Origin: Escherichia coli
GTDB lineage: Bacteria > Pseudomonadota > Gammaproteobacteria > Enterobacterales > Enterobacteriaceae
Assembly (NCBI RefSeq): GCF_003334405.1
Contig: NZ_QOWM01000002.1
Length of the DNA stretch: 64,000 nucleotides
Direction: 5' to 3' (one strand)
In this document: positions 61,028-61,794 of the stretch, piece after piece
Layout: every line of letters begins with the position of its first letter
How positions within the stretch are numbered: the stretch's first letter is position 1
Position numbers and translations under genes: made by a program
The notes under the pieces: generated by a model
What the model saw: only the letters and a program-made list of their open reading frames with translations
Database searches by the model: none
Told to the model about the DNA's origin: nothing

Positions 61028-61261
61028 GACAAACAATAATAGATGCTTATTTTCCTCGCAGGGTTCTTTCGCACTATCAAAAAACGCTCATTTACCCGGC
61101 GTTACAGTAAACGAAGCAACATTCTGTGGCCTACGCCGATCAAAAGCTCTGTGAAAATTTCCCTTGTTGTCTTTGTCTGACCTTATCGCGGCGATCAGCA
61201 ATTATTCGTTTTGTGATCCTCAACACAAAATGCTATTCGTCGCCTATGAGGGGAGAAGAAT

Positions 61262-61606
61262 TTATGGAAAACGATTGCATTCACAAAATGACGTCCTGTC
61301 AGAAGAGAAAAAGTTGACGTTAATCAATTGTTCGAGATGATCAATACATGTATTCGAAATTTTAAAATATTGATAAAATAAATGTTTGTTCTCCAACAAA
61401 TAGCGTGAAAAAATGTGACATGCCGCATTATTTATCACTGAAAATGGTTTATTTATAATAAAATTTGAGAACTTGCTCATTAAATTTAACTCAAATTTTG
61501 CCTGGTAATTATCCGGTAATTGCTTGAAATATGGTCTCAGCCCCTTTTTTGTATTAACCACATAACGAATGATGTTATCGCCATAAAATATGGTTATCCC
61601 CGTCAT
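61262..61606 (-). CDS. tdcR: small AT-rich ORF annotated as tdc operon activator TdcR
   Basis: Track ORF 61262..61618 trimmed to MTGITIFYGDNIIRYV; divergent from tdcA. Confidence 0.7.
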   Translation of the reverse strand: MTGITIFYGDNIIRYVVNTKKGLRPYFKQLPDNYQAKFELNLMSKFSNFIINKPFSVINNAACHIFSRYLLENKHLFYQYFKISNTCIDHLEQLINVNFFSSDRTSFCECNRFP

Positions 61607-61794
61607 TTTTTTTGACAAAAATCAGGGTTTATGCTGATTTTTATACTTTAACTTGTTGATATTTAAAGGTATTTAATTGTAATAACGATACTCTGGAAAG
61701 TATTGAAAGTTAATTTGTGAGTGGTCGCACATATCCTGTTCATTTCATTTTGATACACTTCATGCCGTCAATGAGGTAATTAACGTAGGTCGTT

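Follow-up and report, generated by a model that had tools for sequence, protein, structure and literature searches.

The tdcR open reading frame of Escherichia coli probably overlies an ancestral tdc control region of fixed geometry

The tdcR gene of Escherichia coli, which is read divergently from tdcA, raises two questions: does it encode the small transcription factor that its annotation names, and was its DNA acquired together with the neighbouring genes yhaB and yhaC, whose sequence is also rich in adenine and thymine (AT-rich)? In our study, the locus has been analysed within a stretch of 64,000 nucleotides of E. coli contig NZ_QOWM01000002.1 (assembly GCF_003334405.1), which is called the window here. 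The 3.3 kb surrounding tdcR is 100% identical to E. coli K-12-type chromosomes, and the locus is the same as that of tdcR in K-12 (b3119, NF008507). The explanation that we consider probable, with some reserve, is that positions 61196-61794 form an ancestral cis-regulatory module of tdc with fixed geometry, and that the tdcR open reading frame (ORF) is an Escherichia-only overlay on it without amino-acid constraint. The homology and synteny of this DNA, the fixed spacing of its elements, the missing coding signature and the restriction of the ORF to Escherichia are demonstrated by the alignments described below. The ORF would then be either a very young de novo gene or a frame without a functional protein. 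The question is of some weight, as for 35 years EcoCyc, RegulonDB and the transcription factor censuses have listed TdcR as a transcription factor that makes up its own family. Should the ORF encode no functional protein, the E. coli regulatory network contains one false node, and the control logic of tdc has to be redrawn around cis elements.

The genes in question, with RefSeq coordinates carried over onto window positions, are as follows.

61262-61480, minus strand: tdcR as annotated in RefSeq, 72 amino acids, 'transcriptional activator TdcR'
61481-61618, minus strand: upstream extension of the tdcR frame, an older annotation with 114-amino-acid entries in NCBI
61795-62733, plus strand: tdcA, with tdcB and tdcC next

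The full open frame on the minus strand (61262-61618) has 118 codons from a TTG at 61618 or 114 codons from an ATG at 61606; the 114-residue form of the older annotation is still frequent in databases, where most members are full length. Matches with 100% identity in E. coli genomes are labelled tdcR and lie divergent from tdcA, and homologues of TdcR are confined to Escherichia and Shigella.

The ancestry of the DNA was approached through tdcA. TdcA was used to scan one genome per species, and 64 loci from more than a dozen genera were retrieved. The segment 61196-61794 was found to be homologous and syntenic 5' of tdcA in at least 12 enterobacterial genera. Orthologous DNA directly 5' of tdcA was recovered by tblastn and blastn in Escherichia, Citrobacter, Salmonella, Kluyvera and Trabulsiella, and the alignment from 61196 up to tdcA is nearly gap-free with the last four of these. 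Orthologous DNA at the same position, in the absence of yhaB and yhaC (yhaBC), was seen in Citrobacter, Salmonella, Kluyvera, Enterobacter, Lelliottia, Raoultella and other genera, and the most deeply conserved block (61574-61626) was found also in Lelliottia, Silvania, Pseudocitrobacter and Kluyvera. In Salmonella the tdc module is present and the tdcR ORF is absent. The gene order in the other genera is garK, rnpB, tdcA, with about 1.05-1.5 kb from the end of garK to tdcA in most of them and 2.4 kb in S. arizonae (1052-2446 bp among the non-E. coli loci listed); the spacer between tdcA and tdcB measures roughly 95-190 bp across the same loci. As judged from these alignments, the tdcR DNA and its flanks (61196-61794) predate the split of the enterobacterial genera and were not acquired with yhaBC. 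Three of the loci (L003, L037 and L062) came from records labelled as a Bacteroides metagenome-assembled genome, a Chryseobacterium sp. and an uncultured Clostridium sp., and L003 is 100% identical; all three carry a tdc locus of E. coli or of the Enterobacteriaceae, probably through contamination or mislabelling.

At the end nearest to tdcA, the module carries the elements of the tdc promoter.

61716-61731: proximal CRP site of the tdc promoter, TGTGAGTGGTCGCACA, 1 mismatch
61751-61759, plus strand: extended -10-like element TGaTACACT, read from the sequence, in a conserved region
61649-61661, minus strand: exact IHF consensus, TATCAACAAGTTA, about 68 bp upstream of the CRP centre

Of the 61 tdcA loci tested, 60 have the proximal CRP site, centred 68.5-73.5 bp from the ATG of tdcA. 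The position of the -10-like element would put the tdc start near 61766 and the CRP site at about -42, in class II geometry. The IHF site, whose TATCAA is conserved and whose offset from the CRP site is 67-68 bp, would lie about 110 bp upstream of the same start. The sequence thus suggests a class II CRP-dependent promoter with an upstream IHF site, both conserved across genera, and here the sequence-only reading, which had expected the CRP/IHF-dependent tdc promoter in the spacer between tdcR and tdcA, was borne out at the level of the sites. The exact IHF consensus has five matches in the 64 kb, and two of them lie within the 0.6-kb tdc upstream region. The CRP pattern by itself occurs in the window about as often as expected (30 found against 27); hence the support for the CRP sites comes from their conservation and not from the pattern match. 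A generic promoter scan gave hits at chance level (4 found, 3.4 expected), and no terminators were found. The promoter elements of tdcR itself are not conserved outside Escherichia. An FNR-like motif, TTGAC-N4-ATCAA at 61314-61327, was considered and set aside, as its conservation stops at Escherichia.

Multi-genus alignments of the upstream region have revealed about ten short islands amid diverged sequence. Their offsets were counted from the proximal CRP site in the 60 loci with that anchor, and the positions were found to hold within 1-3 bp across genera. The islands upstream of the promoter elements, and the distal site at which the module ends, are the following.

61608-61625: I0, TTTTTTGACAAAAATCAG, a TGA-N6-TCA dyad; offset 107-110 bp in 53 of 60 loci
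61574-61598: I1, GTTATCGCCATAAAATATGGTTATC, a palindrome CCATA-N3-TATGG between GTTATC direct repeats; offset 141-144 bp in 60 of 60 loci
61516-61534: I2, GTAATTGCTTGAAATATGG; offset 198-201 bp
61478-61490: I3, CATTAAATTTAAC, which includes the ATG of the 72-residue ORF, about halfway between the two CRP sites; offset 237-239 bp
61408-61419: I4, AAAAAATGTGAC, with a TGTGA half-site; offset 306-309 bp, in Raoultella too
61363-61386: I5, which holds another exact IHF consensus, TATCAATATTTTA, at 61363-61375 (minus strand); offset 347-350 bp
61319-61333: I6, GTTAATCAATTGTTC, an ArcA-box-like direct repeat; offset 396-398 bp
61269-61291: I7, AAACGATTGCATTCACAAAATGA, with a TCACA half-site, spanning the 3' end of the tdcR ORF; offset 446-448 bp
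61212-61227: distal CRP-type site, TGTGATCCTCAACACA, 1 mismatch, at the left end of the ancestral module

I0 has an invariant core in 15 sequences, and the block to which it belongs is the only one still alignable by blastn in Lelliottia, Pseudocitrobacter and Kluyvera. It is a candidate regulator site, and TdcA as its binder would be a guess on our side. The upstream extension of the tdcR frame (61481-61618) overlaps the two deepest-conserved islands. The I6 region (61318-61333), with direct repeats 11 bp apart that appear as TGTTA-N6-TGTTG in Citrobacter, resembles an ArcA box; the ArcA-like pattern occurs in the window at chance frequency (44 found versus 46 expected), and is a weak lead only.

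The distal CRP-type site was sought 520-640 bp upstream of tdcA in the 61 loci with enough upstream sequence and was found in 56 of them, among others in Raoultella, Enterobacter, Lelliottia, Yokenella, Silvania, Pseudocitrobacter, Huaxiibacter and Leclercia. In 15 sequences, its half-sites are invariant and its spacer is free to vary. Where both CRP sites are present (55 loci), their centres lie 500-507 bp apart, mostly 503-505, and 504 bp corresponds to 48.0 turns of 10.5 bp; the differences in this distance between loci are not multiples of three. The neighbouring spacers in these loci, from garK to tdcA and from tdcA to tdcB, differ widely in length by contrast. No convincing -10 element for a class I or class II promoter served by the distal site was recognized by eye at standard distances on either strand, and the literature searched held no mention of this site or of a fixed tdc architecture. 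About ten islands fixed to ±2 bp within 0.5 kb, held in over a dozen genera, represent an unusually rigid architecture for a bacterial regulatory region and a system in which long-range nucleoprotein control can be tested. A 17-codon ORF on the plus strand, MENDCIHKMTSCQKRKS (61264-61317), with a strong Shine-Dalgarno sequence, GAGGGGAG, sits just downstream of the distal site and antisense to the 3' end of tdcR. Its ATG is kept in Escherichia; it was ruled out as a conserved leader peptide, as the ATG is missing in Citrobacter and Salmonella.

The evolution of tdcR as a coding sequence was examined by counting substitutions per codon position in seven Escherichia lineages, with tdcA from the same genomes as the comparison. 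In the 72-residue frame, the substitutions fell 34/33/36 on codon positions 1/2/3, versus 9/7/139 in tdcA, and in the upstream extension they fell 18/21/21. The share of variable columns in tdcR (0.384) equals that of the third positions of tdcA (0.404). Among eight E. coli strains, the counts were 8/6/4 for tdcR versus 0/0/10 for the first 300 nt of tdcA. The pairwise ratio of nonsynonymous to synonymous substitution rates (dN/dS) was 0.40-0.86 for tdcR versus 0.009-0.032 for tdcA. Hence neither a third-position excess nor a dN/dS well below 1, which would mark purifying selection on the amino acids of TdcR, was observed. Upstream of tdcA in 16 sequences of the Citrobacter group, no period-3 signal was detected (ratio 1.1-1.6 versus 15-43 in tdcA).

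The 72-residue frame is intact in all eight E. coli strains examined. The 114-residue extension is interrupted by stops and by indels of 1 bp in E. whittamii, E. albertii and others, and stays open in E. coli and Escherichia sp. MOD1-EC7003 alone. ATA replaces the ATG of the 72-residue ORF in E. albertii, an internal stop interrupts this frame in one lineage (L007), and the stop codon is gone in several Escherichia lineages. Outside Escherichia, the orthologous DNA is interrupted by 2-6 in-frame stops and, at codon 38, by a 1-bp indel, and the ATG is missing in most cases. No consistent ORF was found there in the tdcR region, and no intact full-length tdcR-like ORF with a codon-type pattern was found in other genera among the 64 loci retrieved with TdcA. 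Column-by-column alignment thus sets the ORF against orthologous non-ORF sequence in the outgroups together with enabling changes, as expected of a de novo ORF, the polarity of the individual changes being only partly settled. At this composition, chance alone would be expected to give a run of 72 or more codons without a stop (P = 0.38). Minus-strand 'ORFs' of 100-127 codons that lie past the distal site in Enterobacter, Lelliottia and others were discarded as artefacts antisense to the GC-rich rnpB.

At the protein level, the sequence-only reading had described tdcR as short, AT-rich and without a recognisable motif, and this description holds: its guanine-plus-cytosine (GC) content is 0.29-0.30, and a Pfam search gave no domain, the sole weak match being BESS (E = 0.038). 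TdcR does belong to the NCBIfam equivalog NF008507 (172.1 bits against a cut-off of 100, over residues 43-114 of the 114-residue form), which is its only NCBIfam match and a family itself built from tdcR. AlphaFold2 on 21 sequences gave no confident fold (mean predicted local distance difference test score 38.9, predicted template modelling score 0.27), in a test weakened by the shallow alignment. Neither a DNA-binding domain nor a confident fold was therefore available to characterize TdcR as a DNA-binding transcription factor, the fold test again resting on that shallow alignment. No Shine-Dalgarno sequence was recognized at either start codon on reading the sequence.

Several reports describe regulators at the same DNA. 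A segment mapping to about 61259-61735 is one of 78 E. coli 'promoter islands' bound by H-NS (PMC3661553). Systematic evolution of ligands by exponential enrichment (SELEX) with the RpoD holoenzyme has placed promoters in the tdcA-tdcR spacer and in the tdcR-yhaB spacer (PMC3946193), and the tdcA/tdcR spacer is also a SELEX target of Lrp (PMC5320599). In Salmonella, tdc is repressed by H-NS (PMC3212961). During the evolution of E. coli in the mouse gut, IS5 inserted recurrently at 3265168, reaching frequencies of up to 65% and exceeding 5% in 4 of 6 mice (PMC7518454); IS5 insertions in the same spacer in the mouse gut were described in a further study (PMC7064181), and an A->C single-nucleotide polymorphism 36 bp from the IS5 site was likewise repeatedly selected there (PMC7518454, PMC7064181). 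By our mapping, the IS5 site would correspond to about 61664-61665, a TTAA between the IHF and CRP sites, and the polymorphism to about 61701. An IS5 element at about 61665 would sever the upstream module from the CRP site and the core promoter. As the spacer is a repeated target of IS5 in the mouse gut, its architecture bears on the tuning of serine and threonine catabolism in vivo, in commensal and pathogenic E. coli.

From these elements a possible mode of action can be outlined. At the promoter end, a class II-type CRP site is followed by the IHF site 68 bp further up, by about eight more islands and then by the distal CRP-type site, about 504 bp from the first. The islands are most likely protein-binding sites that need a fixed three-dimensional arrangement, which is the simplest reading of their conservation. 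CRP, IHF, TdcA, Lrp and H-NS, all reported at the locus, and perhaps ArcA would be the candidate binders, and the bound proteins may jointly set tdc expression through silencing and counter-silencing. If TdcR is not a functional protein, the trans effect of multicopy tdcR could be explained by titration of a DNA-binding silencer. The proteins at the islands, the looping or wrapping of the DNA and the silencer titration are thus steps that we infer from site content and spacing. In its most specific form, which we offer as a speculation and regard as rather unlikely to hold in full, 61212-61731 would be a nucleoprotein switch clamped by two CRP dimers 48 turns apart with IHF bends and further site-specific proteins between them, looping or wrapping the DNA so as to govern the silencing of tdc by H-NS/Lrp throughout the Enterobacteriaceae, and TdcR would be no protein regulator, its trans effect being silencer titration.

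The main rival to an ancestral cis-regulatory module with an unconstrained overlay is that TdcR is a genuine small trans-acting activator of 72 or 114 residues, young and fast-evolving, which overlaps older cis sites. We hold it to be the less probable explanation, and yet one to be taken seriously, since a number of points weigh against our own. The open run of 119 codons in E. coli is unusual (P = 0.012), and the tdcR frame is open in 6 of the 7 diverged Escherichia lineages. Under random substitution starting from the K-12 frame, the chance of its staying open is 0.04-0.74 per lineage and about 0.002 jointly for four roughly independent lineages. These open-frame statistics give a hint of selection on translatability. 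The Datta laboratory (Schweizer and Datta, 1989; Hagewood et al., 1994) is said to have found tdcR acting in trans, by complementation from a multicopy plasmid. The mRNA of tdcR is detectable (PMC12143686), and TdcR is counted as a single-member transcription factor family (PMC4797297); the ORF is also intact in every E. coli strain examined and full length in most database members. On the other hand, the substitution pattern lacks amino-acid constraint both between and within species, domain, fold and Shine-Dalgarno sequence are wanting, the start codon is lost in E. albertii and a stop interrupts one lineage. Moreover, the conservation that exists tracks DNA islands which also occur in genera lacking the ORF, and multicopy AT-rich DNA might imitate a trans effect through silencer titration. 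A frame that is protected while its amino acids are not would suit a gene of very recent origin, or an ORF for which being translated matters and the product does not. Ribosome-profiling reports on tdcR found no mention in the literature searched.

That last combination of an open frame and free amino acids would also suit translation needed just for the protection of a transcript, and so leads to the view that the locus functions through a non-coding transcript or through transcription as such. The RNA could be the divergent tdcR RNA, or one that comes from the distal end as an antisense or a long leader, working via interference, supercoiling coupling or displacement of H-NS. The detected tdcR transcripts (PMC12143686), the RpoD promoters in both spacers (PMC3946193) and the dense 'promoter island' (PMC3661553) are in keeping with it. 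We nevertheless find an RNA role improbable. RNAalifold over 61195-61640 on both strands in 15 genera gave no conserved structure (-7.2 and -5.8 kcal/mol over 451 columns, with 1 compensatory pair per strand), the only 'stems' being the DNA palindromes. An Rfam scan of 57000-64000 (E <= 1) returned rnpB and sub-threshold matches related to repetitive extragenic palindromic (REP) elements, none of them in 60900-61800, so that neither an Rfam family nor covarying structure marks a structured non-coding RNA. The tdcR promoter elements are, besides, a feature of Escherichia alone, and short islands held at rigid distances are what one would sooner expect of proteins bound to DNA than of an RNA without structure. 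Still further from the data is an ancient protein-coding gene that has decayed to a pseudogene everywhere but in Escherichia, which we consider very improbable. The translated similarity of 27-54% over 39-132 residues in Citrobacter, Salmonella, Kluyvera and Trabulsiella, and lengths that are almost free of indels, could be read in its favour. Against this, the period-3 signal is missing in Citrobacter and in Escherichia alike, no outgroup has an intact frame, the length differences are not multiples of 3, and a neutral pseudogene would not hold island positions over so many genera. The module with its Escherichia-only overlay is hence retained as our preferred explanation.

The second question, whether tdcR was imported along with yhaBC, requires the left part of the locus.

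Ending at 58348: garK (RefSeq)
58381-58757: rnpB (Rfam, 318 bits)
59258-60445, minus strand: yhaC (RefSeq), AT-rich and lineage-restricted, between rnpB and the tdc module
60467-61006, minus strand: yhaB (RefSeq), AT-rich and lineage-restricted, between rnpB and the tdc module
61007-61195: upstream region of yhaB, belonging to the Escherichia-specific insert

The sequence-only reading had proposed that 59.2-61.8 kb, with yhaC, yhaB, tdcR and the flanks, is one horizontally acquired AT-rich segment. In its favour, GC is low across the whole interval apart from a bump at 61000-61260, genes at the locus were flagged as foreign by earlier compositional methods (PMC3661553, Table 1), and the YhaC, YhaB and TdcR ORFs are all restricted to Escherichia. 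The comparative evidence runs the other way. Homology with other Escherichia species restarts at 61196-61200, and at 61086 in the closest clade, which would place the right boundary of the yhaBC insert near 61086-61196. To the right of this boundary, many genera without yhaBC have DNA orthologous to 61196-61794 in synteny with tdcA; absence at the syntenic position in related genera is true of yhaC and yhaB only, and not of the tdcR DNA. Within E. coli, too, yhaC, yhaB and tdcR do not come and go as a single unit: at 80% or more query coverage, tdcR with its spacer was found in 5384 of 5426 complete genomes and yhaC with yhaB in 4302, and yhaBC is reduced to remnants in about 20% of the E. coli genomes that still carry tdcR. 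In ATCC 25922, tdcR and tdcA are intact and yhaC/yhaB are down to three scraps; as these scraps are left, its state reflects deletion and not the original arrangement.

The single segment is thereby judged hardly credible, and for the tdcR part these sequence comparisons refute it. The sequence-only reading had itself named conservation of tdcR independently of yhaBC, with a core-like composition, as an outcome that would speak against it; the independent conservation was found, and the composition proved to be AT-rich. The block of yhaBC appears instead, from the alignments, to be an insertion in the Escherichia lineage between rnpB and the older AT-rich tdc upstream region. Among the 64 tdcA loci, YhaC and YhaB were not found outside E. 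coli and Shigella, except as remnants in E. albertii (39 residues of YhaB) and in the closest sister clade of E. coli (53 bp of yhaC). In a set of 5.8 billion proteins, the YhaC homologues belong without exception to E. coli or Shigella. A source of yhaC was sought in phages and none was found. A plasmid source was also rejected, as the matches resemble E. coli chromosomal records (three of 4.8-4.9 Mb and one of 354 kb) and were all typed as non-mobilizable.

Some further features of this left part were observed. A second allele class of YhaC (P0081-P0085; 389 amino acids, 66% identity to K-12 YhaC) is present in many E. coli contigs. IS621, an IS110-like element, lies inside the yhaC-yhaB segment in some E. 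coli strains, and IS1 lies in yhaC in one strain. A second H-NS-bound 'promoter island', 3266734_706, falls in yhaC (PMC3661553), and SELEX peaks of RpoS and RpoH lie within yhaB (PMC5493296). Directly after rnpB, 58735-59014 consists of 2.5 tandem copies of a 113-bp unit, each made of a GC-rich hairpin and a T run and thus terminator-like, with a copy number that varies between genera. REP-like palindromic elements at 59027-59140, between these repeats and yhaC at the left edge of the yhaBC insertion, have only sub-threshold Rfam matches (naRNA4 and ES036).

Base composition, on which the proposal of one segment was founded, has also been re-examined. The GC content is 0.288 in the 72-residue tdcR ORF and 0.326 in its upstream extension, against a window mean of 0.504 (standard deviation 0.064). 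Windows of 350 bp with GC below 0.31 make up 1.6% of the total; they comprise the yhaC block, the tdcR block, including 61251-61750, and one unrelated site. AT-rich flanks had been described on both sides of tdcR, which is correct for the right flank (61619-61794, GC 0.312) and not for the left (61037-61261, GC 0.431), which is mildly AT-rich only. The supposed compositional continuity with yhaB-yhaC is broken by the bump at 61000-61260. The left flank is a composite of a yhaB part (61007-61195, GC 0.439) and an ancestral tdc part (61196-61261) that contains the distal CRP-type site, and the continuity is accordingly interrupted between two blocks with different histories. In 16 of 16 other species the 600 bp 5' of tdcA has a GC content of 0.29-0.375, and in K-12 of 0.317, so the tdc upstream region is AT-rich in every genus examined and its low GC is an ancestral trait rather than a mark of import. 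The likeness in GC between the yhaBC block and the tdc upstream block is therefore a coincidence. This carries a caution, namely that AT-richness and H-NS binding mark ancestral regulatory DNA at this locus rather than an import.

In comparison with known systems, the tdcR gene is already known, and it is the annotation as a transcription factor that is now seen to lack a protein-level signature. The annotation presents tdcR as a protein transcription factor, whereas the ORF described here has no amino-acid constraint, domain or confident fold and is absent outside Escherichia, and its DNA is kept in other genera as non-coding islands. It is also new that this DNA is part of a 0.5-kb control module which is deeply conserved, unusually rigid and delimited at either end by a CRP-type site. 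A CRP- and IHF-dependent tdcABC promoter was reportedly described by Wu and Datta in 1992 (cited via PMC9426608). The region studied here resembles it in its conserved CRP and IHF sites, about 42 bp and 110 bp upstream of the inferred start, and differs from the classical tdcABC promoter region in that the conserved module is about 460 bp longer, with another CRP-type site, at constant distance, as its far end. In bgl, flhDC and glpFK, AT-rich upstream regions silenced by H-NS are activated by IS5 insertion. Like these and like the 'promoter islands', the tdc region is AT-rich, H-NS-bound and promoter-dense, with adaptive IS5 insertions just upstream of the core promoter. 'Promoter islands' have been proposed as marks of foreign DNA (PMC3661553), whereas the tdc one is ancestral and syntenic, with precisely placed sites. 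Further, tdcR shares with de novo restricted ORFs a non-coding orthologue in the outgroups, confinement to one genus, a dN/dS near 1 and the lack of a domain or fold. Unlike the usual de novo ORFs, the tdcR ORF, known from sequence, has as its parent DNA a constrained regulatory module rather than neutral intergenic sequence.

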